The notes under the pieces: generated by a model
Seen by the model: only the letters and a program-made list of their open reading frames with translations
Database searches by the model: none
What the model was told of the DNA's origin: nothing
IMG/VR virus record: IMGVR_UViG_3300025018_002313
Length of the DNA stretch: 49,071 bases
Source of the DNA: a virus
Reading direction: 5' to 3' (one strand)
In this document: one piece after another, positions 1 through 42,627 of the stretch
Position numbering within the stretch: the stretch's first letter is position 1
How the letters are laid out: the number at the start of each line of letters is the position of its first letter
Position numbers and translations under genes: made by a program

Positions 1-25
1 CGTAAATCATATATCTCCATATAAG

Positions 26-110
26 TGGTAGTCGTGGAGGGATTCGAACCCTCAAGCTAAAAAGCGTGGCATTTTAAGTGCCATGAGTTTGCCAATTTCT
101 CCACACGACC
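26..110 (-). tRNA. tRNA-Leu: tRNA-Leu (anticodon UAA), class II with long variable arm, encoded CCA
   Basis: The reverse complement reads GGTCGTG-TG-GAG-AAATTGGCAAA-CTC-A-TGGCA-CTTAAAA-TGCCA-(variable arm)-GAGGG-TTCGAAT-CCCTC-CACGACT-A-CCA. The 7-bp acceptor stem has a G1-U72 wobble pair. The anticodon loop is CTTAAAA, so the anticodon is TAA. A canonical GGTTCGAATCC T-arm is present. Folded by hand, not by software. Confidence 0.8.
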
Positions 111-176
111 ATCTATGCATTCTTTTTTTCTTCAAAGAATGTTTATATTATATGTATTCAAATGTCAAAGATCAAT

Positions 177-207
177 AAAAAAACCCCGGCCTTTTGGACC
201 GGGGTTC
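177..207 (-). terminator. rho-independent terminator (minus-strand orientation) separating the accessory operon from the tRNA
   Basis: The stem CCCCGGCC..GGACCGGGG (183-203) is flanked by an A-run on the plus strand. Read on the minus strand this is hairpin followed by a TTTTTT tract. Confidence 0.7.
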
Positions 208-348
208 TAACTAAATTTATTTAGATAGTTCACACCGGTCTGCGTGGTAGATGCCACAACGAACTGGATGATAAACTCTCTAATATATTTCTCATATAAA
301 TAATTATGCCTTCAGATAATAAAAAATCAACGTATTTTAAAAATATTT

Positions 349-540
349 TTAAGTATTTGTTCCATATGTAATAAACACTGTAATATAAGAACCACAATCT
401 ATATATGTTACGTCATTTTTAGTCCAATCAGTTCCAATATTTGTTATAGCATCCTGCATAATACTGGATAAGGAAGCCATATAAGTTAATGTATCGATTG
501 GATTCTTTAGAAACCCTCTACAATATGTTTTTACTGCCAT
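349..540 (-). CDS. hypothetical small protein (63 aa)
   Basis: ORF with a GGAGAG Shine-Dalgarno 6 nt upstream of the ATG. Last gene before the terminator. No recognisable motif. Confidence 0.45.
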   Translation of the reverse strand: MAVKTYCRGFLKNPIDTLTYMASLSSIMQDAITNIGTDWTKNDVTYIDCGSYITVFITYGTNT

Positions 541-554
541 TTTCTCTCCTGTAA

Positions 555-833
555 CTATTTATCTACTACAATAGTACTTTTTTTAATTCTCGTGGTCTTG
601 GTGCCTGTTAAAAATTCCCATAATGATTTACGCTCTTTAGTATCTTCTAATTTCATATCAATAATTTGGTTCTGTAAATCATTAACTTTATACATTGCTG
701 TTGTTAGATTCTCGTTGGTTCTATTTACTTCTTCTATTAAACTTCTATTAACTATATTCAATTGCGCTATGTCTTTCGACATAGCTTCTAATATACTTTC
801 AATACTCTTTCCTTCAATTTCTATTCTTACCAT
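555..833 (-). CDS. hypothetical coiled-coil protein (92 aa)
   Basis: ORF with heptad-like charged and hydrophobic periodicity. Its start overlaps the stop of the upstream GT2 gene by a few nucleotides, which suggests translational coupling. Confidence 0.5.
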   Translation of the reverse strand: MVRIEIEGKSIESILEAMSKDIAQLNIVNRSLIEEVNRTNENLTTAMYKVNDLQNQIIDMKLEDTKERKSLWEFLTGTKTTRIKKSTIVVDK

Positions 834-1615
834 AATATTATTCTCCCATTCTCTGCTTTTACAGGTTGGTTCAGTGTGTGATGAGTAGTATTTGGATTTC
901 TGAGAGCTGTTTTTACTTTCATCTGTAATTTTTTAGTTTGTTCATCTTCTTGGTTTTTATAAAATTCTCTTCTTTGATCAACTACAATATCTCCATTGGA
1001 GAACTTATCTTTAAATAATTTTGTTTGAGGGTGCCATTGATGAAAAATAGTTAAATTATCGTTAGTAACAACTTCATATTTTTCTCTAATAGTTTTTACA
1101 TAATCTGTATCTTCAAAGCCATGCTTCCAATATTCTGGCCAACCACCTGATTCTAAAAAAGTCTTCTTTGTCATAAACACATTACCACCTCCATGGTGAA
1201 TAATTTGCTTACCATTATCAACTTCATATAGAACTGTTGGATAATAAACTTTACTATCATCTACCATATTAAGTCCGTATTGTATCACTTCTCGGTTAAT
1301 TATCATATCTGCATCTATAAAGAAGATATACTCTCCATTACACTGTGATGCTGCTATGTTCCTTCCTTTTCCAGCAGAGAAACCTACATCACACTGTACA
1401 TCTATTAAATGAATATCAATCATCGGAAGCATCGATTCTAGCCATGTCTCCAGCGGCCAATCAGTTGATTCCCAATCAGCTATTATCAACTCAACCTCTG
1501 AATTTAATGATAGTGATGATGCAATAGATTCAATACAGTTTGGAAACGGATATATAAAACCTCTATCTGTATGAATCTTGGAACGATTCTTTATAGTTGT
1601 ACATATCGATAGCAT
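827..1615 (-). CDS. family-2 (GT-A fold) glycosyltransferase
   Basis: N-terminal 'SICTTIKNRS' resembles the GT2 'S-x-P-x-NR/E' motif. 'ELIIADWESTD' and 'FFIDADMI' look like DxD metal/sugar-binding motifs. Size 262 aa. Confidence 0.6.
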   Translation of the reverse strand: MLSICTTIKNRSKIHTDRGFIYPFPNCIESIASSLSLNSEVELIIADWESTDWPLETWLESMLPMIDIHLIDVQCDVGFSAGKGRNIAASQCNGEYIFFIDADMIINREVIQYGLNMVDDSKVYYPTVLYEVDNGKQIIHHGGGNVFMTKKTFLESGGWPEYWKHGFEDTDYVKTIREKYEVVTNDNLTIFHQWHPQTKLFKDKFSNGDIVVDQRREFYKNQEDEQTKKLQMKVKTALRNPNTTHHTLNQPVKAENGRIILW

Positions 1616-1654
1616 ATCAATACTTTATCACATTAAAAAATAAAGCAAATGCTA

Positions 1655-3559
1655 TTAGGTATCAATCTGCCACAGTGGAATAAGTCTTTCTCCTAGTGTG
1701 GTATTTATTAGTAGGAACTCTCCATCAAACACAGTGCTTGCAGGTGATGTGATAGTTGATGTAAATGTTATGTCATCTAATGTTAACGTAGTTCCTGTTA
1801 TATTAGGATTAATTGTTAGAGGGCTCGCTGGTGTACCGTTCCCGTTGATTGTATCATCCGTAGATACCAGTGAAAGATAATTCCCAGCTGGAGATGCAAC
1901 CTGAGATCTTCCGGTTCCTGTTATATCCTCAACTTCAATTAGCGTCCAGTTTGAACTTTGATATTTAAGAATAATTCTACCAATAAAAACACTTTCTGGT
2001 GTTAATACCGGTAATCCATTTCTTAGATCTAACGGTGATAGTGATTGTTCTTCTGATAAGGATGCACTTTGTGATTGTCCTTGAACAAATATAAATCTAT
2101 GCTTCTGTGATTCAACATCAGCAGCCATTGGAACAGCAACAATCCAAACACTCATAAAGTCATTATTTGACATTGGTGTTTGTGTCCAGATTGTTCCATT
2201 GAACTGATTATAGTATGGTTGATTTCCATTCAATGGAACAATATCATCTGATGTTCCGAATACTCCAACGCCAGTTGAACCAGAAAGCCAGAATTGTGTA
2301 TAGGGGCCGCTTGCTAATGCTGGATTGATTGTTGGTAGATCTTCATCATATATAAGTGCTTCACTAATTGTTGGTCTTCTATTTGCTACAGTGGTGGAAT
2401 TAAGAGTATAATTGCTTAGGGTTCCACCTGTTTGTCTGTATGTACCAATAACTTCATGAAATTCTCTATGAGTAGTATGCTGCATGACACTGTGACATTC
2501 TCTCTGATATACCCAACCACTTGCATTATGGAATGTCCAACAGATTAATAAGTTTTTATAAAAATCGGATGCTAGGGTAGCTGAATCATTCCAAGAAATA
2601 GAATTGCCATCATAATACAGGAAGTATCTTTTTGTTGGGTCATCAGTATGAACAGGAGATGTCCAACCAGATGATAAAACTGGAACTAATGTTCCTTGAT
2701 AGTATGCCTTAACTGTTCCTGTTAGAGTTATTGTTCTGCTTGCTGAATCTCCAGTTACAATAACATCCTCCGGAGCAATAAATCCAGTTGGATCTTCACT
2801 ATCAGAAAGTATTGTTCTAGGAACATAATCATTGATGTTATAATCAAAATCAAAATAATCAGCTCCCTCGTGCCATACGGGAAATTGTCCAGTAGTTGAT
2901 AGTGCGGTTCCATTTACATCAGATAGTTCTTCTAATGTATAATGACGTTCTAGGGTTACAAGAATTGAGCCTAGAGTTGAATGAACAACGCCAACGGTTC
3001 CGACAATATCAGCATGGTGCGGTTCTGTTGGTTCGATATTAGTTAATTGACCAGCAACATCTTTGGATACATATAACAAATCCCCTTCTGCCCATGTAGT
3101 ACCCCAAATTCCAGACCCTGTATAATTTGTTTTTATTTTACGAACATACCCGAATGTTGTGATATAACCAAAGTCATTAGCTGTTATGTCTTTTGTACAG
3201 ACACCAACAACCCTGCATGTCAGTGGGGCATCAGCCTTTGCTAATCTAACATCTGGATATGCCCCTGTTCTGCCAGAAAGATAAACAACTTGTCCATTAG
3301 CAATATCTTCATTGGCTCGAACTTTAACAAACATCTCTTGACCAAGCTGCATTTGGATCTCGCCACCATCAAGACCGAGATCAAGTGTACCATCTGTTTC
3401 ATTCCATGCTAATTGACCTTCTTCAACGATGGATTCTGATGTGAGATTAAATTGTAGAGTTGGGAGTGTTAGATTCCCGTCCATTGTGCTTCCTGCTACA
3501 CCAACAAATCTCTCATCTGCTTGTACTTTTGAATACCCGTTTTTATATGTTGCTGCCAT
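1655..3559 (-). CDS. tail-fiber-like structural protein (634 aa), Asn/Thr/Gly-rich
   Basis: Long ORF with fiber-like composition and an 'MAATYKNGYSK...' N-terminus. A SD-equipped subtilase gene sits immediately upstream of it. No catalytic motif seen. Confidence 0.55.
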   Translation of the reverse strand: MAATYKNGYSKVQADERFVGVAGSTMDGNLTLPTLQFNLTSESIVEEGQLAWNETDGTLDLGLDGGEIQMQLGQEMFVKVRANEDIANGQVVYLSGRTGAYPDVRLAKADAPLTCRVVGVCTKDITANDFGYITTFGYVRKIKTNYTGSGIWGTTWAEGDLLYVSKDVAGQLTNIEPTEPHHADIVGTVGVVHSTLGSILVTLERHYTLEELSDVNGTALSTTGQFPVWHEGADYFDFDYNINDYVPRTILSDSEDPTGFIAPEDVIVTGDSASRTITLTGTVKAYYQGTLVPVLSSGWTSPVHTDDPTKRYFLYYDGNSISWNDSATLASDFYKNLLICWTFHNASGWVYQRECHSVMQHTTHREFHEVIGTYRQTGGTLSNYTLNSTTVANRRPTISEALIYDEDLPTINPALASGPYTQFWLSGSTGVGVFGTSDDIVPLNGNQPYYNQFNGTIWTQTPMSNNDFMSVWIVAVPMAADVESQKHRFIFVQGQSQSASLSEEQSLSPLDLRNGLPVLTPESVFIGRIILKYQSSNWTLIEVEDITGTGRSQVASPAGNYLSLVSTDDTINGNGTPASPLTINPNITGTTLTLDDITFTSTITSPASTVFDGEFLLINTTLGERLIPLWQIDT

Positions 3560-3567
3560 CTATTCTC

Positions 3568-4596
3568 CTAATTCCACCATGACCATAAAACTTTACGAGC
3601 AACCTTCCTTAACCATCCTAGTATCCCTGTAGGCTCTGTCTTCGGTATTGATATAATTGGCTCATCAGCCCCGCTACTGAAAATCAACTTCTCTGGATCA
3701 ATTACTCCATATCCCCAAATCGCATCTTTACCGACAATACCTTTGTCATCGGCATATTTAATTAGATGCTCTTTAATTTGTTCAATTGTTTTGCAGTCGT
3801 TCATTCCAGTTTCTGCTTCTTGCTTGCGATGTTTAGCCAATAAGAGAGCAACCAGTCCTGTAATGAAAGGTGTAGCCATTGATGTTCCACTTAGTTTAGC
3901 GTATTGATTATTCAAGTATGTTGAGTATATATCAACACCCGGAGCACTAAAATCTACCATGGAACCAGTACTGTTAAATCTTGCAGGATTACCTTTTGAA
4001 TCGAACGCTGTAACACAAATAGTTTCTGGGTATTTACCTGGATAATTAACTGCATCACTACGACCATCATTACCCGCGGCACAGATTACTGGAATATTTA
4101 GTTTGTATAGTTCTTTAATTGGATCATGTAGAACAGACTTATCAACCGGCGCACCCAGACTCATCGATACTATATCCGGTTTTGTACGTATAGCATATTT
4201 TAATCCATTTGCTATTTCCTCATACGTTCCACCACCACTATCACCCAATACACGAACAGTAACTATAGTGCACTTTGGTGCTACTCCAACCATTCCGATG
4301 TCGTTATGTCTTGCTCCGATAATACCACAGACATGAGTGCTATGACCATTACCATCCATAATAGTAGATTCACCTTCAATACAGTTTCTACTATCTTTCT
4401 TGTTCATTGCTCCGATTAAATCTGTATGATCAGTAAAGCCAGTATCTAACACCATCACAACAATATCTTCCCCTTCTGTAATAGTCCATGTCTTAGGAAC
4501 ATTTAGCTGTCTTATTCCCCAGTCTTCTACTTGAGATAATGTAGTTACTACATGTTCAACTTTAAACGGTGGTAAAAATATATCTGGATGTCTCAT
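3568..4596 (-). CDS. S8 subtilisin-like serine peptidase
   Basis: Catalytic triad motifs in order: 'VMVLDTGFTDHTDL' (Asp), 'GNGHSTHVCGIIGA' (His) and 'GTSMATPFITGLVA' (Ser). Start moved from the track ORF (4698) to the internal Met at 4596, which has an AAGGAG SD 5 nt upstream and removes a 94-nt overlap with the upstream gene. Confidence 0.8.
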   Translation of the reverse strand: MRHPDIFLPPFKVEHVVTTLSQVEDWGIRQLNVPKTWTITEGEDIVVMVLDTGFTDHTDLIGAMNKKDSRNCIEGESTIMDGNGHSTHVCGIIGARHNDIGMVGVAPKCTIVTVRVLGDSGGGTYEEIANGLKYAIRTKPDIVSMSLGAPVDKSVLHDPIKELYKLNIPVICAAGNDGRSDAVNYPGKYPETICVTAFDSKGNPARFNSTGSMVDFSAPGVDIYSTYLNNQYAKLSGTSMATPFITGLVALLLAKHRKQEAETGMNDCKTIEQIKEHLIKYADDKGIVGKDAIWGYGVIDPEKLIFSSGADEPIISIPKTEPTGILGWLRKVARKVLWSWWN

Positions 4597-4604
4597 TTCA
4601 CTCC

Positions 4605-5000
4605 TTATAGTAATTTTGCTATTGCAGATATTAATGCACTTAATGGTTTGAAAAATATAATTATAATAACTAAAGTAACTATTACTCCTGGAAACCAATG
4701 CATTATAAATTTTTTAGTCCATTGCGACCACGAAAGATTTTCTGTTCTTAGTTTTAAACTGTTTATAACTTCTTTATCTTCTTCATTTTGTTTAGCCATA
4801 CTCTCAAGAGTCGATTCAAGTTTTTCGATTGATTGTGATAGTACTCTAATCGCCCAGACAATACTCTCTTGTGGATTACCATTACCAAACAACACTGTAT
4901 GATGGCTCGTAACACGGCCATTAAGTTCTTCCAGCGCCCTCTGTATTAACGCGAGAGTAACAACAATCTGTTCTTCTTTATCTTTGGACTGAATTGCCAT
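4605..5000 (-). CDS. C-terminally membrane-anchored helical protein (131 aa)
   Basis: Charged helical N-terminal region followed by one strongly hydrophobic C-terminal segment, 'WFPGVIVTLVIIIIFF'. TAATG stop/start overlap with the cupin gene. Confidence 0.5.
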   Translation of the reverse strand: MAIQSKDKEEQIVVTLALIQRALEELNGRVTSHHTVLFGNGNPQESIVWAIRVLSQSIEKLESTLESMAKQNEEDKEVINSLKLRTENLSWSQWTKKFIMHWFPGVIVTLVIIIIFFKPLSALISAIAKLL

Positions 5001-5479
5001 TACTTTGCTCCTCTCTTAGGGGCTGGCCACGCCTTATCAGCAGGTAATACTGCTACTACTATTTCTGTCTCAACATCTACATCAGATGTAATAAAATGAG
5101 GTACATTAGGCTCGATATAGCAAATATCACCCGGCTTGAGCGTCATAGTTATATTACCTTCTTTTAGTACTGTTATCGATCCTTTTATTACACTAAATAT
5201 TTCTGCAACATTATGTGTATGCTTTTCTAATTCTGTATCTGGTGCAAAAAATGTTCTTGCTACTGCAATGTCTTTTATCTTTAATAGCCCGTATGTATGA
5301 ATGTGACCTCTCTTGGTAGGAATATCATATTCATCTTTAGTTCCATCATCATTTATATTTTTTACTATTTGTGCATAGTCAATACAAAACTGTGAACTCA
5401 ATTTCTCAATTGCTTCATTAATATAATCCAATTTAATTTCTTTAGGATTAGTATTCTTATGTGTTAGATCAAACGTCAT
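5000..5479 (-). CDS. cupin-fold (double-stranded beta-helix) metal-binding protein
   Basis: Both cupin motifs are present: 'HTHNVAEIFSVIKG' (H-x-H-x3-E-x6-G) and 'KPGDICYIEPNVPHF' (P-x-G-x5-P-x3-H). Confidence 0.5.
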   Translation of the reverse strand: MTFDLTHKNTNPKEIKLDYINEAIEKLSSQFCIDYAQIVKNINDDGTKDEYDIPTKRGHIHTYGLLKIKDIAVARTFFAPDTELEKHTHNVAEIFSVIKGSITVLKEGNITMTLKPGDICYIEPNVPHFITSDVDVETEIVVAVLPADKAWPAPKRGAK

Positions 5480-5487
5480 TTTTGGTC

Positions 5488-5958
5488 CTAAATAGTGTAA
5501 TGATTAAATACGCGAATATCTGAATCAGTTGAGCCATCAGAGACCAACCATATTCCAGATGTCTCTCTTTCAATAGAATAATATGTACCAGGCTCTACTA
5601 CCATGCCGTTAGCTGTGATTGCTTGAGCTGTTGTCGCAGAGTAGTATAGATAGATATTATTTGTACTTTTATTATAAATCTCAATCAGTGATGATCTATT
5701 TACAAAAACAAGAGGATAAACAGTTGCTGGAGATGAAATAAACGAATGTACTTCATTTTCGTTTGGTACTTGTGTCTCTACAGTTGCACCACTTAGTGTT
5801 GGTGAGTTTACTTGGTATGTTAATAGTGCATATCTACCACGAGATGCAGATAAAGTTTGCATAGTCATACCAAATCTCTGAAGTTCTTCACTTGTCAAGA
5901 CGGTAAATTTACCACGCTCTGCTTCTGCGCATGCAAACCTAGTATTAAAATTCGGCAT
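5488..5958 (-). CDS. hypothetical protein (156 aa), first gene of the accessory operon
   Basis: ORF with AAAGGAGAAAA SD. It is preceded on the minus strand by the repeated 18-mer promoter-like element and an upstream terminator. Confidence 0.55.
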   Translation of the reverse strand: MPNFNTRFACAEAERGKFTVLTSEELQRFGMTMQTLSASRGRYALLTYQVNSPTLSGATVETQVPNENEVHSFISSPATVYPLVFVNRSSLIEIYNKSTNNIYLYYSATTAQAITANGMVVEPGTYYSIERETSGIWLVSDGSTDSDIRVFNHYTI

Positions 5959-6041
5959 TTTTCTCCTTTCACGAGCTATTTGCTGGCGATTTTTATCGCG
6001 GGAACTTCTCAGTTCCGGGTCTACGACCGGGTACTTGGATC

Positions 6042-6059
6042 TTTTAAATATTTAGTCAA
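6042..6059 (-). promoter_or_regulatory. copy 1 of the exact 18-mer TTTTAAATATTTAGTCAA (minus strand TTGACTAAATATTTAAAA), a promoter-like element
   Basis: Identical 18-mer to 38318..38335. Both copies lie just downstream, in the minus-strand sense, of a terminator and 20-100 nt upstream of a minus-strand start codon. Contains the palindrome TAAATATTTA and a TTGACT hexamer. Confidence 0.5.
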
Positions 6060-6074
6060 CTCAGATACAAAGAA

Positions 6075-6114
6075 CAAAAAAAGCCGATAGATTTTAGGTC
6101 TATCGGCTTTTTTA
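6075..6114. terminator. bidirectional rho-independent terminator
   Basis: Stem AGCCGATAGA / TCTATCGGCT with a 7-nt loop, flanked by AAAAAAA on one side and TTTTTT on the other. Confidence 0.75.
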
Positions 6115-6129
6115 TTGAAATTTTGAATT

Positions 6130-6690
6130 TTATGTAAACTCTGTAATCGTCTTAGCAACAAAAGGATCGGCTTCTAACATGGTTATTCCAAACATAGATG
6201 AACTCCAACCACTTCTATAAAAATAATAATATCCTGTTGTTATGCTTGAATCAGTGAATATGCCAGACCCAATAGAAGTAGGTGCATTTCCTCTAAATAT
6301 TGCACCGTCTGTAAAACTAGAACACAAAACAAATGCACCATCACCAATACTTGTTACAGAACTACCTATTGTTAAAGTACCATCAAATCCAGAACAATTA
6401 GCAAATGCCCCGTAACCAATACTTGTTACAGAATTAGGAATTACCAAAGAACCTGTAAGTCCGGCGCATTCGCTAAATGCAACTTCTCCAATAGTTAATA
6501 AATTAGTTGCACCTGACATATCCAATGAAGTGATATTAGTATCTTGATAAAATGCATAATCATCAATACCAACAACATTATGCCCTGCGCCATCATCAGC
6601 AGGGATTACTACTGCTCCGTCACCTAAATTACTATATCCTGATACATATGCATTTGAGCCATCTATTCTATATATTAATGTTACAGCCAT
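6130..6690 (-). CDS. BspA-type leucine-rich-repeat protein (186 aa)
   Basis: Repeating ~23-residue units such as 'IPNSVTSIGYGAFANCSGFDGTLTIGSSVTSIGDGAFVLCSSF', typical of BspA-like LRR. AAAGGAGAATAAACA-ATG RBS. Immediately downstream of the giant repeat fiber. Confidence 0.6.
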   Translation of the reverse strand: MAVTLIYRIDGSNAYVSGYSNLGDGAVVIPADDGAGHNVVGIDDYAFYQDTNITSLDMSGATNLLTIGEVAFSECAGLTGSLVIPNSVTSIGYGAFANCSGFDGTLTIGSSVTSIGDGAFVLCSSFTDGAIFRGNAPTSIGSGIFTDSSITTGYYYFYRSGWSSSMFGITMLEADPFVAKTITEFT

Positions 6691-6704
6691 TGTTTATTCT
6701 CCTT

Positions 6705-9700
6705 TTATGCAAATTCAGTTGTTACCCAAGTTTTCCGACCGGTCGTAATATGCCATTGGTCTGGTAACATCAAATCAAGTTTAACAGATGCAAATGGCTG
6801 GCTTCCTGGATCAGCGGAAGGTCCACTATAAATAGATGCACCATATGCAGAATCATCAATTCTTTGTGAATCGCCAGCAACAACAGACAATTTAACCCCT
6901 GTTGTAAACTTGCTGAATGTATAATATGTTCCTAGGTCGTCAAATGTGACATCAGGTAGCACAAATGCAATCGAAGACAATGCATTACTTGAAACACAGA
7001 ATGTTGTGCTTGATTGCGTTACATCGACATTATATGGTGTTGTATCAACTATAACAACCGAAGGTTTAACCCATTTACTACTATTCGATTGAACAGTAGT
7101 AAATGTTGAATTCCAATTACCGGATGAAGCTTGTATCTCTGTTATGTTAGTACTACCAATACCAGTCAAATAAGACCCGTCACCGAAAAATGCGGTTGCG
7201 CTAATATTATTAGCGCTCAACGTTCCTGTACTTATCCACTCTCCGCGAAGTACATTTGGACCGGGTGTTATTACTCCACTGGTTCGACCGAGATGTACCT
7301 GTCCATCATTAATATAAATCGCGTCACCTTTAGCATCATGACTTCCAGGATCAACTGTACCATAATTATCTATAAACAACTGCGGTGATCCTGCTAAATT
7401 TGGAGCACCTCTACCTGCCCAATACCCTACCGCAATAGAGTTATCTGCTGTACTATAAGCTCCAGCCCATGCACCAATATATGTTGATTGAGATATGCCA
7501 GGACCTGCATAATATCCGGCTTGATATCCAAAAACATCAACGTCTTGCCCTGATAATCCTTCTCCAGCCTTATAGCCAACAATAGAATTTGCTGAATCAA
7601 CGACAACAGCATTTAAGAGAGCGTTAGTACCAAAATATTGCCCTTGTACTATATTTGTACCTGTTCGTAAATCATTGCTAACAACAATCTCTTCACTTGC
7701 ATTTGATGAAATAATTGCACCAGACTCAAATTTAATCGAACTATTACCAACATAGATTGTATCTGCACTAAGAACTCTTGTAGTTATGATATCAGCACTA
7801 AGGAATGGAGTAATGATCATATCTGCATTAAGAGTGTCAGCACTTAACCCACCAGTTACATTCCAATCTCCTCTTAATACTCCATTTTCTCCGAGTACAA
7901 CCCCGTTGGCGGCACTAACAGTAAACTGGTCGCTTGTCGTTGATGATACAGCTGCTGTAAATGAACTCCATACGAATGTTCTACTATGAACTGCTTCTGC
8001 ATTTAGACCTGCTGCATGTGATATGGCACCTGAAGCTACTGTACTCGCTCCCTCTGAGTGAGACGTACTACCGGATGCTATCGTAGCTTGGCCTTCTGCA
8101 TGAGCCTGGCTGCTACTGGCGTAATTTCCAACACCTTCGACATGAGATCCCTGACCGGATGCTGTATTCGATTGACCTTCTGCATGGGCATATAGTCCCG
8201 TCGCGTGATTTAAACTACCTTCTACATGTGTATAGTCATTTGTCGCTTCGTTCAATCCACCCTCTGCATGGGCACAGTGTCCTGTTACATTATTTACAAT
8301 ACCTTCTGCGTGTGATCTCCGACCAGTTACAGTGTTCTCTCGTCCCTCTACATGAGAACATAACCCTGTAGATGTAATATTGTTTCTATATCCTTCAGCA
8401 TGAGACCAATCACCAGATGCTAGGTTATAACCGCCTTGTGCGTGAGACATTACCCCTGTTGCAGATACACCAATACCGAATGCGAACGACCCAGAACCTG
8501 AAGCAATCACAGTGTATCCTGAGCTATCAGGAATATAACCACCAGCAAATGCTCCATCTCCTTGCGCTATAATATCAGCTGATACTGATGCATTAAATCC
8601 TTGAGCATGAGAGCCAGGCCCGGATGCTGTTGTTCGGTATCCTTCTGCATGTGATGCTATTGCGATAGCCGAAGTAAAGTGTCCTTCAGTGTGTGATTCG
8701 TTACCGCTTGCTCTTGTTTCATTTCCTTGCGCGTGTGATGCGTTTCCAATAGCTAAAGTACCGTACCCCTCAGCATGAGATTGTTGACCACTTGCTATTG
8801 TTTGCTCTCCTTCTGCATGAGCGTGTATATTGGATGCAAGCGTCAACCAGCCCTCTGCATGTGCATTTGCGCCTGTTGCAGATGTTTGCCATCCTTCAGC
8901 ATGAGCAGCATTACCAGATGCTATTGTACCTCTACCTTCTGCATGCGAGCCGCTTCCGGATGCAAGTGTATTCTCACCAGGTTCAACATACCCCTCCGCA
9001 TGAGATCCGTACCCTGTTGCTGATATAGAAGCGTGTGCGGTAAATGGTGTTGTTAATAGAGCACCCTCCGCATGTGATCCAGCGCCTTGGGCGCCTATTA
9101 CACCGTTGGCTTTAGCATATCCCTCCGCGTGAGATCCTTCACCTCTAGCAATCTTAAATCCATTATTCGCTATGCCACCGGCTGATCCCTCTGCATGTGC
9201 ACCATCACCAGCTGCTATATTTCCATATTCACCACCAGGTACGTATCCCTCTGCATGTGCTCCAATGCCTGTTGCTATATTTCTATGGCCTTCTGCATGT
9301 GATGCGTATCCGTGTGCATAATTAGTAGAGCCCTCTGAGTGAGAATATGAACCATATGCTGTTGTTACTTCACCTTCTGCATGTGAGGCTTCTCCTTGAG
9401 CTATCGTTTGACTTCCTTCAGCATGAGCAGCATTACCAGATGCCAAAGTATAGCCGCCTTGTGCATGTGAAAATAAACCAATAGCAGATGTCGCGTTGCC
9501 CTCTGTATGAGAACCACGTCCTGATGCTACAGTGCTATCGCCCTCCGCGTGTGAATTATATCCTTGTGCTCTAGTTAAAATGCCCTCAGAATGTGCTGCT
9601 GTTAACCCGACAAAAGTGCTATCACCCTCAGCATGTGAGTAGCTCGCGAGACTGGATGCATATGTATTAATACCTTCTGTGTGTGTTGCAATTCCTTGTG

Positions 9701-10799
9701 CATATGTTCCATGTCCCTCTGCATGCGAAGCGATCGACATTGCAGATGTTGATACACCTTCTGTATGTGATATAGATCCCCATGCAAAAGTATTAATACC
9801 TTCTGCATGTGCGTATGATCCGTTAATAGCACGTGAATGATATCCTTCTGCATGTGAGCCGTCACCGCTAGCTATTGTCTCTATACCTTCAGCATGAGCA
9901 TAAAATCCATCAGATGCTATAGTTTCAGCTCCCTCAGCGTGTCCGCCGTTATCTGCTAAAGTTTTCCATCCTTCGGCGTGTGAGCCATACATCTCATCAC
10001 CAATACTTCCAGTACCAGTTGCTACTGCGCTTGTTTGATAACCTTCTGAGTGAGATGCAACACCGTTTGCTATAGTTCCTGAACCTTGTGCGTTGGCAGC
10101 TCTACCTAGCGCTTTTGTATATTCACCAGAAGTAAATGTACTATCACCATCAGCAACGGAAATATAACCTAGATTAACAGGATCAGGCCACGTTTTTTGA
10201 GCAGAAAGACCTGATTCAATTCTAACACCACCATTAAAACGAGCCCAGTTCTCTGACCAAAGACCAACCCCAGAGAGCGTAACTACCGCTTCTGAAGTCG
10301 GATTTATATTAGATGGAGGATCGAGCCGTAAATCAGGACCAGAAACATAGAATCCACTTAGTTCAAATATCTGTAAATCTGTTGTATTAAGAACAGCTGA
10401 AAATGCAAAAAGGTTTGTAGTCCAGATTGAGTGTGCTGTTAGTGCGTGCTTAAAATTAGCATTACCATCAACAAATAACGCAGGATGAGACATATCGGAC
10501 CAGACGATATTTTCGTTACCGAAACTATCGATACCGATATCACCTTCATATGTGGATGGCGCGCTTATGTAGATGCCTACGGTTCCACCAATAGCGCAAA
10601 TTGCTGCATTGTTAGATTGAAAAAGACCTGCGTACGCGGAAAGCGGTGCGAACGCACTCAGCCCCCCTGCTAGACAGAAATCACCCTGAAACGGGTCATT
10701 TGGATGGGCGATTGGATCATAACCGCCATCTGGTTCTCCTGGTTTGTTGTATGTGTGATGATTATGACGATGCCATTTGTTGTGAAAACGATTACTCAA
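6705..10799 (-). CDS. giant tail fiber/adhesin-like protein (1364 aa) with a ~45-50 unit 14-residue repeat array
   Basis: Uninterrupted 4.1 kb ORF with a GAAGGAGGTATTA-ATG RBS. Residues ~249-937 are tandem 'SHAEGxxTxASGxx' units. N-terminus is His-rich ('HNKWHRHNHHT'). C-terminal ~430 aa is non-repetitive and Gly/Ser/Thr-rich. Confidence 0.8.
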   Translation of the reverse strand: MSNRFHNKWHRHNHHTYNKPGEPDGGYDPIAHPNDPFQGDFCLAGGLSAFAPLSAYAGLFQSNNAAICAIGGTVGIYISAPSTYEGDIGIDSFGNENIVWSDMSHPALFVDGNANFKHALTAHSIWTTNLFAFSAVLNTTDLQIFELSGFYVSGPDLRLDPPSNINPTSEAVVTLSGVGLWSENWARFNGGVRIESGLSAQKTWPDPVNLGYISVADGDSTFTSGEYTKALGRAANAQGSGTIANGVASHSEGYQTSAVATGTGSIGDEMYGSHAEGWKTLADNGGHAEGAETIASDGFYAHAEGIETIASGDGSHAEGYHSRAINGSYAHAEGINTFAWGSISHTEGVSTSAMSIASHAEGHGTYAQGIATHTEGINTYASSLASYSHAEGDSTFVGLTAAHSEGILTRAQGYNSHAEGDSTVASGRGSHTEGNATSAIGLFSHAQGGYTLASGNAAHAEGSQTIAQGEASHAEGEVTTAYGSYSHSEGSTNYAHGYASHAEGHRNIATGIGAHAEGYVPGGEYGNIAAGDGAHAEGSAGGIANNGFKIARGEGSHAEGYAKANGVIGAQGAGSHAEGALLTTPFTAHASISATGYGSHAEGYVEPGENTLASGSGSHAEGRGTIASGNAAHAEGWQTSATGANAHAEGWLTLASNIHAHAEGEQTIASGQQSHAEGYGTLAIGNASHAQGNETRASGNESHTEGHFTSAIAIASHAEGYRTTASGPGSHAQGFNASVSADIIAQGDGAFAGGYIPDSSGYTVIASGSGSFAFGIGVSATGVMSHAQGGYNLASGDWSHAEGYRNNITSTGLCSHVEGRENTVTGRRSHAEGIVNNVTGHCAHAEGGLNEATNDYTHVEGSLNHATGLYAHAEGQSNTASGQGSHVEGVGNYASSSQAHAEGQATIASGSTSHSEGASTVASGAISHAAGLNAEAVHSRTFVWSSFTAAVSSTTSDQFTVSAANGVVLGENGVLRGDWNVTGGLSADTLNADMIITPFLSADIITTRVLSADTIYVGNSSIKFESGAIISSNASEEIVVSNDLRTGTNIVQGQYFGTNALLNAVVVDSANSIVGYKAGEGLSGQDVDVFGYQAGYYAGPGISQSTYIGAWAGAYSTADNSIAVGYWAGRGAPNLAGSPQLFIDNYGTVDPGSHDAKGDAIYINDGQVHLGRTSGVITPGPNVLRGEWISTGTLSANNISATAFFGDGSYLTGIGSTNITEIQASSGNWNSTFTTVQSNSSKWVKPSVVIVDTTPYNVDVTQSSTTFCVSSNALSSIAFVLPDVTFDDLGTYYTFSKFTTGVKLSVVAGDSQRIDDSAYGASIYSGPSADPGSQPFASVKLDLMLPDQWHITTGRKTWVTTEFA
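7990..10055 (-). repeat. 42-nt periodic coding tandem repeat array (degenerate) inside the fiber gene
   Basis: Plus-strand blocks such as cc(t/c)tctgcatg(t/a)ga recur every ~42 nt. They translate to SHAEG on the minus strand. Confidence 0.75.
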
Positions 10800-10863
10800 T
10801 TAATACCTCCTTCAAGCCACTCTTTCGAGGAACATTACTTAATGTTACTATTTTAGATGGTCA

Positions 10864-10878
10864 TTAAATATTTATACA
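10864..10878 (-). promoter_or_regulatory. T4-late-type promoter (minus strand TTGTATAAATATTTA), copy 1 of an exact 15-mer
   Basis: Plus-strand taaatatttatacaa is the reverse complement of TTGTATAAATATTTA, which contains the T4 late -10 consensus TATAAATA. It lies ~70 nt upstream of the fiber ATG. The identical 15-mer recurs upstream of gp25 (33878..33892). Confidence 0.6.
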
Positions 10879-23612: not shown

Positions 23613-23647
23613 TTTATATATTTATTCTCTAACATTGCTTTTCAATG

Positions 23648-33858: not shown

Positions 33859-33877
33859 TTTTATTCCTTAAGTAACA

Positions 33878-33892
33878 TAAATATTTATACAA
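33878..33892 (-). promoter_or_regulatory. T4-late-type promoter (minus strand TTGTATAAATATTTA), copy 2 of the exact 15-mer, heading the baseplate operon
   Basis: TATAAATA lies ~24 nt upstream of the gp25 ATG, in a divergent intergenic region. Confidence 0.65.
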
Positions 33893-37055: not shown

Positions 37056-37063
37056 TATAAATA
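37056..37063 (+). promoter_or_regulatory. TATAAATA box abutting the 37070 ORF (plus strand), part of TATAAATATTTAAAATG
   Basis: Exact T4 late -10 consensus only 6 nt upstream of the ATG. This implies either a leaderless transcript or use of the downstream Mets (residues 24 and 26, preceded by GGTGGG). Confidence 0.4.
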
Positions 37064-37069
37064 TTTAAA

Positions 37070-37800: not shown

Positions 37801-38298
37801 TTATATTTGACCTTGTTCGTACAACCGTGAATGCTCTTCAATGGAATCCCACTGATGCCATTTTGTACCAATCGCGGTAAGAGAATCAATAGAACTCGTC
37901 CATATTCCGTTAATCATTGTACCGGATGCAGCAGATGGTCCTCCAAATAGAGAAGTACCAGTTGATGATACGCTTACTACAACGTCTGTTACAAGAGTTT
38001 CCACATGTGCTACAGTATTATCTACTATAATGTAGAACCATAAAGCTTCTGGTGTTGCATTCACACCGTCCCATGTAATCTCATAGGGTAATGTTGCAGC
38101 ACCAGACAGTGCAATACTAAATCCTGGTAATGTTTGGTTACCGGATATAGAAATACTGTCAATATTAAGTGCGGAAATACCTAATACTGGTGAAAAGGTG
38201 TGTGGGTATGTTGATGCTAGTACAACTAGTGTATCACCATTCGCAACCTCTTTATCTAAATCAAAAATCGTTGTTACTGTATAATTATTATCTGCCAT
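37801..38298 (-). CDS. hypothetical virion-associated protein (165 aa)
   Basis: GGAGGAATTTGAA-ATG RBS. Directly downstream of the second 18-mer promoter-like element and a terminator. Ser/Thr/Gly-rich beta-type composition. Confidence 0.55.
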   Translation of the reverse strand: MADNNYTVTTIFDLDKEVANGDTLVVLASTYPHTFSPVLGISALNIDSISISGNQTLPGFSIALSGAATLPYEITWDGVNATPEALWFYIIVDNTVAHVETLVTDVVVSVSSTGTSLFGGPSAASGTMINGIWTSSIDSLTAIGTKWHQWDSIEEHSRLYEQGQI

Positions 38299-38317: not shown

Positions 38318-38335
38318 TTTTAAATATTTAGTCAA
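38318..38335 (-). promoter_or_regulatory. copy 2 of the exact 18-mer TTTTAAATATTTAGTCAA (minus strand TTGACTAAATATTTAAAA)
   Basis: Identical to 6042..6059. Lies 20 nt upstream of the 38298 start and immediately downstream of the terminator at 38342..38377. Confidence 0.5.
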
Positions 38336-41345: not shown

Positions 41346-42038
41346 TTATGCGTTCTTGAGGGCTTTGAGTATATCAAGAACAGCATTTCTGATTTTTTCT
41401 TCTCTTGCAACAGAATGTCTAGGTAAAGAACCTAAACTTGTTTCAAACTTATTATATGATTCAGTAATTGACCCATCAAAATTTAAGATCCATTCTTTTG
41501 CTTCCATAATACCGTTTACAAATGCTTGTGCACCGTTAGGGCCAGCGTTTACTGAAGGATCATGCACAACATCACAGCAAATTAAATGAAACCCATTTAC
41601 TTGATGTGACCCATCGCCCATAGGATTTAGCTTGCCTAAAGCTCTAGATGAAATTCCAAGCTTCACTCCATCCATAATTAAACTGCGAACTACCTGTCCC
41701 ATAGGATTAGATAAAACTTTCGACTTACCTAAAAACACATTATTTTCTTGCTTTAGTTCGGTGACCATATGACATGCTCGCTCTGGATTTACTTCAACTG
41801 AAGCAGGGTGATTAAGTTCGCCGAGTGACCTGTTTTGTGTAACCATTTCTGAAATGTATCTATGTACTTCTGGTACCATTTCATTCAATGTATAAATGCG
41901 GCCATTTTTATTCTTTTGCTCAGCCATTAAGTACGGCCCGCGAATGTACATTGTGCTTGCTTCTTTTGAATTTTTCTCATCGAGTAGTACATCGTACTCG
42001 TAAACTGGTTCTTCAATTAACAGTTTTAACGGTGTCAT
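41346..42038 (-). CDS. gp21: prohead core protease gp21-like
   Basis: 'SLGELNHPASVEVNP' vs T4 'ALGELNHPPRANVDP'. 'GISSRALGKL' vs T4 'GVSSRGLGSL'. Track ORF (to 42152) trimmed to the Met of 'MTPLKLLIEE', which has an AAGGAGATTA SD. This removes the overlap with the next gene. Confidence 0.9.
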   Translation of the reverse strand: MTPLKLLIEEPVYEYDVLLDEKNSKEASTMYIRGPYLMAEQKNKNGRIYTLNEMVPEVHRYISEMVTQNRSLGELNHPASVEVNPERACHMVTELKQENNVFLGKSKVLSNPMGQVVRSLIMDGVKLGISSRALGKLNPMGDGSHQVNGFHLICCDVVHDPSVNAGPNGAQAFVNGIMEAKEWILNFDGSITESYNKFETSLGSLPRHSVAREEKIRNAVLDILKALKNA

Positions 42039-42094
42039 AGTAATCTCCTTTAAATTATTTATCTCTTTATGTCCAAAAATACTCAATAAACCAT

Positions 42095-42538
42095 CTATCG
42101 TAAATCTTTTTCTGTAAGTATTGCAAAGTGGTATCCGTTTTTCTGGCACCATGCTTTAGCAGAATCCCATTTTTGTTGATTTACTGCCCATTGTATTTGC
42201 TCATATAAAATCGTAGATCTCTTTTTATTTTTACTTGTTTTAGGTGGTACTGCTTGAGTACTCGGCTTTACTTCAATTAGATATTTCTTAACACCGTTTG
42301 GTGTTTTCATTTTAATATTACCATCAACAAAATATCTATGAGTTTTACCATCTTTTGGACTTATATACGGTAACACAACGGACTCTGAACCGAAACTAAT
42401 AATATTTTCATTGCGATCGCACCATCGAAGAAAAGATAACTCAAGACCGCTTCGATACACTATAGGCAAAGTCCCTTTATATTTTTCAGGATGCTCAGGA
42501 TGGTATATACCTTGTTTATATGGATTTTTTCTTCTCAT
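42095..42538 (-). CDS. TnsA-N-like PD-(D/E)XK endonuclease (147 aa)
   Basis: 'SGLELSFLRWCDRNENIISFGSESVVLPY...DGKTHRYFVDGNIKM...KKYLIEVKP...AKAWCQKNGYHFAILTEKD' follows the TnsA_N / restriction-endonuclease-like pattern (E ... D ... E-V-K, then Y-x-F-x-i-l-t-e). No SD upstream of the ATG. Confidence 0.5.
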   Translation of the reverse strand: MRRKNPYKQGIYHPEHPEKYKGTLPIVYRSGLELSFLRWCDRNENIISFGSESVVLPYISPKDGKTHRYFVDGNIKMKTPNGVKKYLIEVKPSTQAVPPKTSKNKKRSTILYEQIQWAVNQQKWDSAKAWCQKNGYHFAILTEKDLR

Positions 42539-42627
42539 TTAAAATATTTAAAAATTCTTCAAAATTATTATCTAGAACTAAACAAAAGTTATATCCAGCA
42601 TCTATTTCTACAGAAATATGTCCCCAC

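Follow-up and report, generated by a model that had tools for sequence, protein, structure and literature searches.

A mosaic, probably late operon of a distant T4-like phage carries a predicted intracellular-type subtilase beside a modular virion appendage gene

Subtilisin-like proteases of the S8 family are described in several settings. Mycosins, which a signal peptide directs to export, carry a C-terminal transmembrane (TM) anchor; Tk-subtilisin is made with an N-terminal prodomain. The intracellular subtilisins (ISPs) of Bacillus and Planococcus (2X8J, 6F9M and 7XR8) share the S8 fold and its D-H-S triad, and have neither a signal peptide nor an I9 prodomain; the 6F9M enzyme has no leader sequence, and its inhibitory LIPY/F propeptide lies across the active site (PMC6220982). 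Phage-encoded S8 domains matching PHROG 3677 are present in cultured phages (Bacillus SP-15, Goe3-like and Tsamsa-like phages, and Moorella MTATph1), and no experimentally assigned function was found for these cultured-phage proteases. Here we analyse an S8 subtilase encoded in an eight-gene operon of the IMG/VR virus record IMGVR_UViG_3300025018_002313, a stretch of 49,071 nucleotides referred to as the window.

The reading that we hold with moderate confidence is that this is a mosaic, probably late operon, in which a cytoplasmic, membrane-held S8 protease would serve a general function in infection, and not a dedicated fibre-plus-protease system. The operon itself is ordinary, of the kind that mosaic accretion usually builds up at the end of a T4-like fibre module, and a fibre/protease/glycosyltransferase machine of the kind suggested by the original prediction, which was made from the sequence alone, is not supported. 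The most informative results are side products, namely the subtilase clade, a β-tulip appendage module and a candidate RNA leader. The elements of the operon, in the order of transcription and with protein lengths in amino acids (aa), are:

6077..6113, minus strand: intrinsic terminator, 15-bp stem and T-run; ends the preceding LRR_5 gene and forms the upstream boundary
6042..6059, minus strand: promoter-like 18-mer TTGACTAAATATTTAAAA, containing a T4-late-promoter-like TAAATA at 6054..6049
5964..6039, minus strand: structured 5' leader RNA, minimum free energy -21.8 kcal/mol, z=-3.2
5488..5958, minus strand: u156, 156 aa, first gene of the unit
5000..5479, minus strand: Cupin_2 protein, 159 aa
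4605..5000, minus strand: tail-anchored protein, 131 aa
3568..4596, minus strand: S8 subtilase, 342 aa from ATG
1655..3559, minus strand: modular virion appendage protein, 634 aa
827..1615, minus strand: GT-A (GT2) glycosyltransferase, 262 aa
555..833, minus strand: 92-aa open reading frame (ORF), overlapping the GT2 stop, identical in the related loci L003 and L004
349..540, minus strand: 63-aa ORF, last gene of the unit
180..208, minus strand: intrinsic terminator, 12-bp stem with 7 GC pairs, then a T-run; downstream boundary

According to our preferred reading, the operon would sit at the far end of the fibre/baseplate module of a T4-like phage of about 236 kb. Transcription would most likely start at the T4-late-type TAAATA box inside the 18-mer, and the transcript would pass through a five-way-junction leader whose outer stem would touch the Shine-Dalgarno (SD) sequence. 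The core would be the u156 jelly-roll protein followed by the appendage gene (634 aa, a β-tulip plus a variable distal part); the cupin, the tail-anchored protein and S8 would have been inserted within this pair, and the soluble GT2 and the two small ORFs would follow. The protease would be made in the cytoplasm as a self-inhibited zymogen, with the LPPF propeptide across its active site as in ISPs, and a C-terminal basic amphipathic helix would keep it on the cytoplasmic side of the inner membrane, where it would cleave host or phage proteins, an infection-cycle function presumably general and common to many large phages.

The eight minus-strand ORFs (5958..349) are tightly packed between the two strongest terminator-like hairpins of the region. 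These are the two best such hairpins in positions 1-7000 (6113..6077 and 208..180, both on the minus strand), where 10 terminator-like sites were found versus 3.2 expected, the internal ones having stems of just 5 bp. In gene order, the first three junctions are 8 nt, a TAATG overlap and 8 nt with AAGGAG; S8 is joined to the 634-aa gene by TAGGAGAATAGATG; and the last three junctions are 39 nt, an ATGGTAA overlap and 14 nt. The eight genes probably form one late transcript of a large T4-like phage. The original prediction of a single bounded unit downstream of the 18-mer held, with the eight ORFs where it had placed them and terminators at both ends, as did its gene content: an S8 protease, a GT-A enzyme with a DxD motif, a cupin with a metal site, a tail-anchored protein and a 634-aa protein resembling virion appendages. 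No Pfam family was found for the 156-, 92- and 63-aa proteins, and an N-terminal hydrophobic segment was absent from every protein of the unit. A phage-borne defence system was ruled out: PADLOC gave a generic subtilase model (6.5e-24) with weak IetS matches, and no match for the other seven proteins.

The S8 protein passed Pfam PF00082 over its whole length (174.9 bits versus a cut-off of 21.8, 2.9e-51, profile positions 1-288 of 288). Its start is the ATG at 4596, as backed by homologue N-termini and database gene calls, neither of which supports a TTG start at 4698. The complete Asp/His/Ser triad claimed by the original prediction withstood alignment: D51 (DTG), H85 (GHSTH) and S239 (GTSMATP), as well as the oxyanion residue N176 (AAGND), were invariant in 28 homologues, and the catalytic motifs align with those of Tk-subtilisin. 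The positions of the main features are:

4564-4575, minus strand: LPPF propeptide motif, intracellular-subtilisin type
4444-4446, minus strand: D51, catalytic Asp
4342-4344, minus strand: H85, catalytic His
3880-3882, minus strand: S239, catalytic Ser
3571-3627, minus strand: C-terminal basic amphipathic helix

Tk-subtilisin was the best PDB sequence match (1.8e-51) and a mycosin model the best in NCBIfam (TIGR03921, 1.5e-46); unlike these enzymes, the phage S8 has neither the Tk-subtilisin prodomain nor the mycosin signal peptide. Assignment as a type VII secretion mycosin was rejected, the score of 159.2 bits being below the TIGR03921 cut-off of 278.75 and the signal peptide being absent. 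The two kinds of N-terminal extension that the original prediction had considered, a signal peptide and a pro-domain, fared differently. No signal peptide was detected (maximum KD19 of 0.61 over the first 15 window positions) and no Inhibitor_I9 prodomain was matched in Pfam, the catalytic domain beginning at about residue 25; a short propeptide of the LPPF kind is present instead. The N-terminus DIFLPPFKVEHVV aligns to NIHLIPYRVEQVT of the Planococcus intracellular subtilisin 6F9M, so that FLPPFKV stands against HLIPYRV and the L-x-P-F/Y motif of the phage enzyme against LIPY/F. The family consensus is KLPPF, with L8 invariant, and LLPY occurs in more distant viral relatives. The best PDB matches include the intracellular subtilisins 6f9m, 7xr8, 7y6m and 2x8j, with alignments that begin at residues 3-6. 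These features mark the protein as a probable intracellular-subtilisin-type protease, which differs from ISPs in its identity of about 35-40%, in having LPPF in place of LIPY/F, in being encoded by large phages, and in the addition of a linker rich in Pro, Glu and Thr and a C-terminal basic amphipathic helix or TM anchor. In the window's protein the linker follows the catalytic domain and leads to a short tail. Across the family the tails have a net charge of +2 to +10, are rich in W and F, and have a helical hydrophobic moment of 0.43-0.93; in 31 of 84 loci the orthologous position is a true TM helix followed by a ENGNVDWDKKYE-like tail. From these sequence features we infer that the enzyme is cytoplasmic, self-inhibited and tethered to the inner membrane.

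Relatives of S8 numbered 3388 database proteins, of which the closest 120 were 52-71% identical, the contigs reaching 238 kb for the closest relatives and 493 kb in the family as a whole; the family occupied at least 498 loci in IMG/VR. Identity reached at most 48% in cellular genomes (185,579 bacterial and archaeal species genomes), with many of the matches in metagenome-assembled genomes (MAGs), and at most 41% in cultured phages by tblastn, mostly in Bacillus phages. Because of these ceilings the clade appears to be essentially viral and uncultured. The lack of a close relative in cultured phages is in line with the original prediction, which had called a subtilase directly upstream of a fibre gene unusual for T4-like phages, and the S8 proteins of cultured phages belong to different phage groups and hosts. 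A recent acquisition from a host is not supported, the best cellular matches being no higher than 48% and many of them lying in MAGs that may include phage contigs. Nor does the operon look like a conserved host-derived cassette, the possibility that the original prediction had named against itself: its arrangement is mosaic and the S8 clade mainly viral. A very large, mostly viral family of ISP-like subtilases is thereby outlined, with a predicted built-in membrane anchor and inteins at the catalytic site, and absent from cultured phages above 41% identity. Little is understood of the cytoplasmic proteases that phages encode besides their head proteases, and this clade is common enough to have a bearing on the way in which large environmental phages handle host proteins or their own.

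The inteins were found in three S8 genes of two lineages. In L010 (L010:12861-15131) the intein lies at the catalytic Ser (GT|intein|SMATP; SGT|C...VHN|SMATP), its +1 residue being that Ser, and in L044:2862-5201 and L045:8345-10684 it splits the His motif (GHG|intein|TH). By analogy with other intein hosts, insertions exactly at catalytic motifs suggest that S8 is a conserved, important gene.

The window belongs to a distant T4-like myovirus. Its genes include those for a gp23-type major capsid protein (34% identity to cyanophage major capsid proteins), gp6- and gp25-type baseplate proteins, a clamp loader and a T4-type scaffold protein, as well as for a Peptidase_S77 prohead protease (41346-42152). 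Since the phage has this prohead protease of its own, with the scaffold and capsid genes also elsewhere in the window, a role of S8 as the head protease was ruled out. No near-identical cultured phage was found among 50,697 by megablast of window positions 1-8000, and a 236-kb metagenomic contig carries proteins identical to those of the window.

The neighbours of S8 varied by lineage. In 25 loci S8 directly follows PhoH. Another group has the terminase large subunit and a gene of about 676 aa immediately downstream; this second gene has no family match, and we take it from T4 gene order to be the sheath gene. In 13 jumbo-phage loci (L043, L047-L055, L058, L064 and L070, IMG/VR contigs of up to 315 kb) a protein of about 2800 aa is encoded upstream of S8, with an S26 signal peptidase, a trypsin-like protease and DnaJ downstream. 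This proteostasis block may correspond to large aquatic phages of the 'moraphage' type, among whose listed genes are a putative peptidase and DnaJ/DnaK (PMC12619734). In the remaining loci the neighbours are unrelated small genes. Because S8 sits in contexts unrelated to fibres, its coupling to a fibre gene is not conserved, and the suggestion that it is a dedicated fibre partner does not survive a family whose members elsewhere stand beside PhoH, terminase and other proteases. Near two other S8 genes, in L005 and L007, cupins were seen that are not detectably homologous to that of the window. L007, a 175-kb phage contig, also has an IS605 OrfB/TnpB (Cas12f-like) gene (L007:5035-6186) beside a gene for a 1767-aa BNR-repeat protein, an insertion about 2 kb upstream of S8.

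Several points weigh against a general function of S8. An appendage gene lies beside or near S8 in three related arrangements, those of the window, L010 and L001. Genes of at least 600 aa adjoin S8 in 27 of 84 loci versus 5% of background genes, a figure dominated by terminase and one giant-protein lineage. A late promoter would also be compatible with a role in virion maturation, and five of the eight proteins have no assigned function. Moreover, the membrane association, autoinhibition and timing of S8 are all read from sequence, and the envelope topology is an assumption.

In the few homologues of u156 the N-terminal motifs AEAERGKF and RGRYALLTY are invariant, and its C-terminal jelly-roll resembles those of cupins and viral spike domains, without metal ligands. 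In L001, L008 (twice) and L010 a large appendage-like gene comes straight after a u156 homologue; the simplest reading is an ancestral u156-appendage pair, between which the cupin, the tail-anchored protein and S8 were inserted. The cupin matched PF07883 (40.6 bits versus a cut-off of 27.2, 2e-10), and its HxH...E / H metal motif is intact (HTHNVAE(x6)G and PNVPH). The 131-aa protein has a soluble N-terminal part and a single C-terminal TM helix (residues 106-124, window 4629-4685, KD19 2.71). Its family is tiny, with 13 representatives among 1.84 billion proteins, and no homologue was present at other S8 loci, which rules it out as a conserved partner of S8. The idea that this neighbour localises the protease was accordingly dropped: the association is not conserved, and the protein is unnecessary for that purpose because S8 appears to have a C-terminal membrane-targeting helix of its own. 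A tRNA-Leu(TAA) gene (110..26) follows the downstream terminator, and tRNA genes or arrays often adjoin u156-type operons (L259:337-1453, L261:166-498 and L272:2522-2604, as well as window 26-110).

The timing of expression was read from the 18-mer. TTGACTAAATATTTAAAA occurs exactly twice in the window, at 6042-6059(-) and 38318-38335(-), in each case just after a terminator and before a minus-strand gene. The T4 late promoter is TATAAATA, and because the window's box resembles it, late expression of the unit is likely. Boxes of the form ATAAATATTTA are found upstream of other genes of the window (17 matches versus 7.0±2.7 expected), and in most of about 20 diverged u156 loci a (C/A)TAAATA box stands 96-108 nt before the ATG; in a few the box is displaced (81 or 116 nt), reads TAAGTA or is absent. 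The second copy of the 18-mer, which has no structured leader, immediately follows the major capsid gene's terminator, and an unannotated gene of 165 aa (37801-38298) stands 19 nt further on. Several genes on either strand, structural and other, are directly preceded by boxes of the ATAAATATTTA type (10863-10875, 23613-23625, 33877-33889, 37057-37069 and 42539-42551).

These data bear on the alternative that GT2, the cupin, S8 and the membrane protein remodel the host envelope or proteome, either to exclude superinfecting phages or for takeover, their place being explained by an insertion hot spot at the end of the fibre module. T4-like cyanophages have hyperplastic regions with lipopolysaccharide-type genes, and both the mosaic gene content and order among relatives and the apparently cytoplasmic, membrane-proximal S8 would fit. 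The apparent late promoter and the transcript common with structural genes, however, oppose an early takeover, and there is no direct evidence for any substrate, so that we regard this explanation as somewhat unlikely.

Whether S8 could instead act on the appendage depends on the 634-aa protein, whose AlphaFold model (pLDDT 83) has a disordered N-terminus followed by two main parts:

2915-3454, minus strand: β-tulip module of the 634-aa protein, aa 36-215, conserved
1895-2782, minus strand: β-rich domain of the 634-aa protein, aa ~260-555, no PDB match

A low-confidence linker (aa 560-604) and a small C-terminal module, also found in another ORF of L001 (E=3e-5), complete the protein. The module at aa 36-215 matches the HFTV1, FCWL1, Pam3, Adjutor and XM1 cement proteins, the gp8.5 base, the phi29 appendage gp12 and MoeA, and shows the β-tulip fold, for which a review of decoration proteins names the same structural relatives (PMC7602432). 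The match to the capsid cement family PF09956 remained below the cut-off (21.5 bits versus 24, E=3.1e-4, residues 73-174), and some homologues have a precomputed match to this family. No tail-fibre family was found in PHROG, Pfam or NCBIfam, and the sole PDB sequence match was insignificant. A single-sequence scan of IMG/VR with the whole protein gave nothing, and relatives were found there with an alignment trimmed to the conserved module. This module is 50-66% identical in hundreds of proteins, N-terminal in many and internal or C-terminal in others, whose other regions are of SGNH esterase, LamG, collagen, S74 or YadA-like types. Most carriers are phages of 35-47 kb. In the siphovirus-like contig L091 the tape-measure and baseplate genes precede the homologue; in many small phages the gene stands a few genes after the portal or directly after the head-closure gene; and in the window the gene is near giant fibre-like genes and gp6/gp25, not beside the capsid gene. 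Since gene positions vary in this manner, the term 'fibre-like' used in the original prediction is fair in the sense of a modular virion appendage, which the 634-aa protein is, even though it matches no known tail-fibre family. In phi29, the head fibre gp8.5 is similarly built, with a β-tulip module and a projecting distal part, whereas the 634-aa protein differs from β-tulip cement proteins in that its gene is not next to the capsid gene and its distal domain has no PDB match. With its high conservation and its many different distal partner domains, the β-tulip module is a candidate for a universal adaptor of appendages on the head or the tail.

A maturation role would make S8 a trans-acting protease that cuts an assembly or chaperone segment off one end of the 634-aa protein or u156, somewhat as S74 intramolecular chaperones are removed, there in cis. 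The apparently late unit, the translational closeness of S8 to the 634-aa gene (TAGGAGAATAGATG) and the linker before a C-terminal module common to another L001 ORF are in keeping with such processing. Gene order in two relatives points the same way: L010 has u156, a 1452-aa appendage-like protein and then S8, and in L001 S8 lies within 7 kb of a 634-aa homologue, together with GT2 and amid sugar-modifying genes. Because of these positions, local maturation of an appendage by S8 keeps some probability, albeit a low one. The 1452-aa protein of L010, however, is not homologous to that of the window; most S8 loci adjoin no appendage gene, with PhoH, terminase or the protease cluster in its place; homologues of the 634-aa protein occur mostly in phages of 35-47 kb, and no S8 gene was called in the two examined (L002 and L091); and there is no known cleavage site. 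On this evidence maturation by S8 is rather improbable as an explanation of the operon.

The GT2 protein matched PF00535 (40.3 bits versus a cut-off of 23.3, 4.2e-10), has the DxD (FIDADM) and GFEDTD motifs, and shows no TM helix or signal peptide, as in a soluble enzyme. It could, possibly with the cupin as a sugar-modifying enzyme, add glycans, in the cytoplasm and ahead of assembly, to the appendage or to some other virion protein, as mycobacteriophages do, S8 being incidental. Phage glycosyltransferases that glycosylate virions are already known (Freeman et al. 2023, as cited in PMC12619734). The soluble GT2, with its DxD intact, is encoded directly downstream of the appendage gene, and in L001 the 634-aa homologue is followed by a sulfotransferase, a pyruvyl transferase, GT7C, Mannosyl_trans3 and, nearby, a GT2 homologue. 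A soluble GT-A gene beside structural genes is also what phage clusters for virion glycosylation or envelope modification have, L001 having a larger sugar set; here, by contrast, the association of GT2 with the appendage is not conserved, since most 634-aa homologues have no glycosyltransferase nearby. Such gene sets are moreover classically read as genes for modification of the host envelope or DNA, and no acceptor motif was identified. We therefore consider virion glycosylation distinctly unlikely as the purpose of the unit. In L004, a near-identical contig, GT2 has a stop at codon 90. The window, L003 and L004 are three near-identical assemblies with five differing sites in 9 kb (window 1347 and 1353, both in GT2, 3240, 5121 and 8871); every one of the five is a C>A or G>T change, a pattern more like oxidative sequencing artefacts than real variants, and the premature stop, a point against glycosylation, is therefore weakened as evidence that GT2 is dispensable. 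A RiPP- or glycocin-type reading (ribosomally synthesised and post-translationally modified peptides), with S8 as leader peptidase acting beside GT2 and small peptides, is not favoured: there is no precursor-like evidence, and GT2 is short, without a peptide-binding extension.

That S8 is a virion-borne or secreted enzyme which degrades a proteinaceous surface layer of the host during adsorption, another role that the original prediction had put forward, is highly improbable: S8 adjoins appendage genes and PHROG 3677 includes S8 domains inside large (1125-position) phage proteins, yet this role is disfavoured because the window's enzyme has no signal peptide and an intracellular-subtilisin-type LPPF propeptide, and there is also no fusion to a structural domain and a C-terminal membrane anchor in relatives.

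The leader of about 75-85 nt occupies the space between the TAAATA box and the SD sequence of u156-family genes. An outer stem, P1, encloses four short hairpins joined by single C residues, which gives a five-way junction; G-C pairs close most of the hairpins, and GAAA loops are frequent. In some leaders the SD sequence begins 2-5 nt after the 3' strand of P1; in others this strand contains it, paired to a CUCC-like anti-SD, as in the window, where P1 includes part of the SD sequence GGA. Folded one by one, the leaders of about 20 diverged loci had the same architecture, among them L001:594-649, L008:7931-7984, L009:7925-7983 and L010:7922-7978, as well as L253-L274, directly upstream of each u156 homologue.

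Of 21 natural leaders, 15 folded into a closed multiloop containing four or more hairpins, versus 1.0% of dinucleotide shuffles (mean energy z -3.15), and this comparison of architecture with shuffles is independent evidence for the structure. In a structure-registered alignment, compensatory double-sided changes were found in 31 of 38 pairs, with a covariation score of 0.596 versus 0.135±0.014 in shuffles and 0.02-0.06 when partners were slid; the figure of 100% pairing is circular, because the alignment was fitted to the fold of each sequence. A descriptor scan over 3.56 Mb located the element at 23 u156 gene starts, with matches elsewhere at noise level and mostly in GC-rich bacterial loci; an earlier three-hairpin descriptor had been non-specific (2278 matches versus 1758 in shuffles), and MAFFT with RNAalifold on the raw sequences recovered hairpin 1 only. 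Rfam gave no match at E≤10 over window 5940-6070, nor at E≤1 at the leader positions of 17 related loci. A weak Rfam match to rnk_leader (171-275), below the gathering threshold, was merely the terminator hairpin.

SD-sequestering 5' leaders and riboswitch-like elements are alike in their position between promoter and SD sequence, in an outer stem that pairs with or beside the SD sequence, and in strong covariation; the window's leader differs in having no Rfam family and four unusually regular hairpins. Possibly it regulates a late phage operon in cis as an RNA of a new type; it would then be a rare case of RNA-based control of phage virion genes. We further entertain, as a tentative possibility, that a new class of leaders gates the translation or stability of a late appendage operon, perhaps by binding u156 or a small ligand, and/or that a virus-specific clade of membrane-tethered, self-inhibited subtilases serves a dedicated late purpose, for example the maturation of appendages or the timing of lysis at the inner membrane.

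Just upstream of the operon, the window encodes a BspA-type LRR_5 protein of 186 aa (6130-6690, minus strand), a kind of protein that might point to the host group, and a 1364-aa protein with dozens of SHAEG-containing repeats (6705-10799, minus strand), beyond which more giant genes (926-1580 aa) reach 31.5 kb. In the head module, a TnsA-like or endonuclease-I-like gene of 147 aa (42095-42538, minus strand) lies immediately upstream of the prohead protease gene and may be a mobile or homing nuclease.

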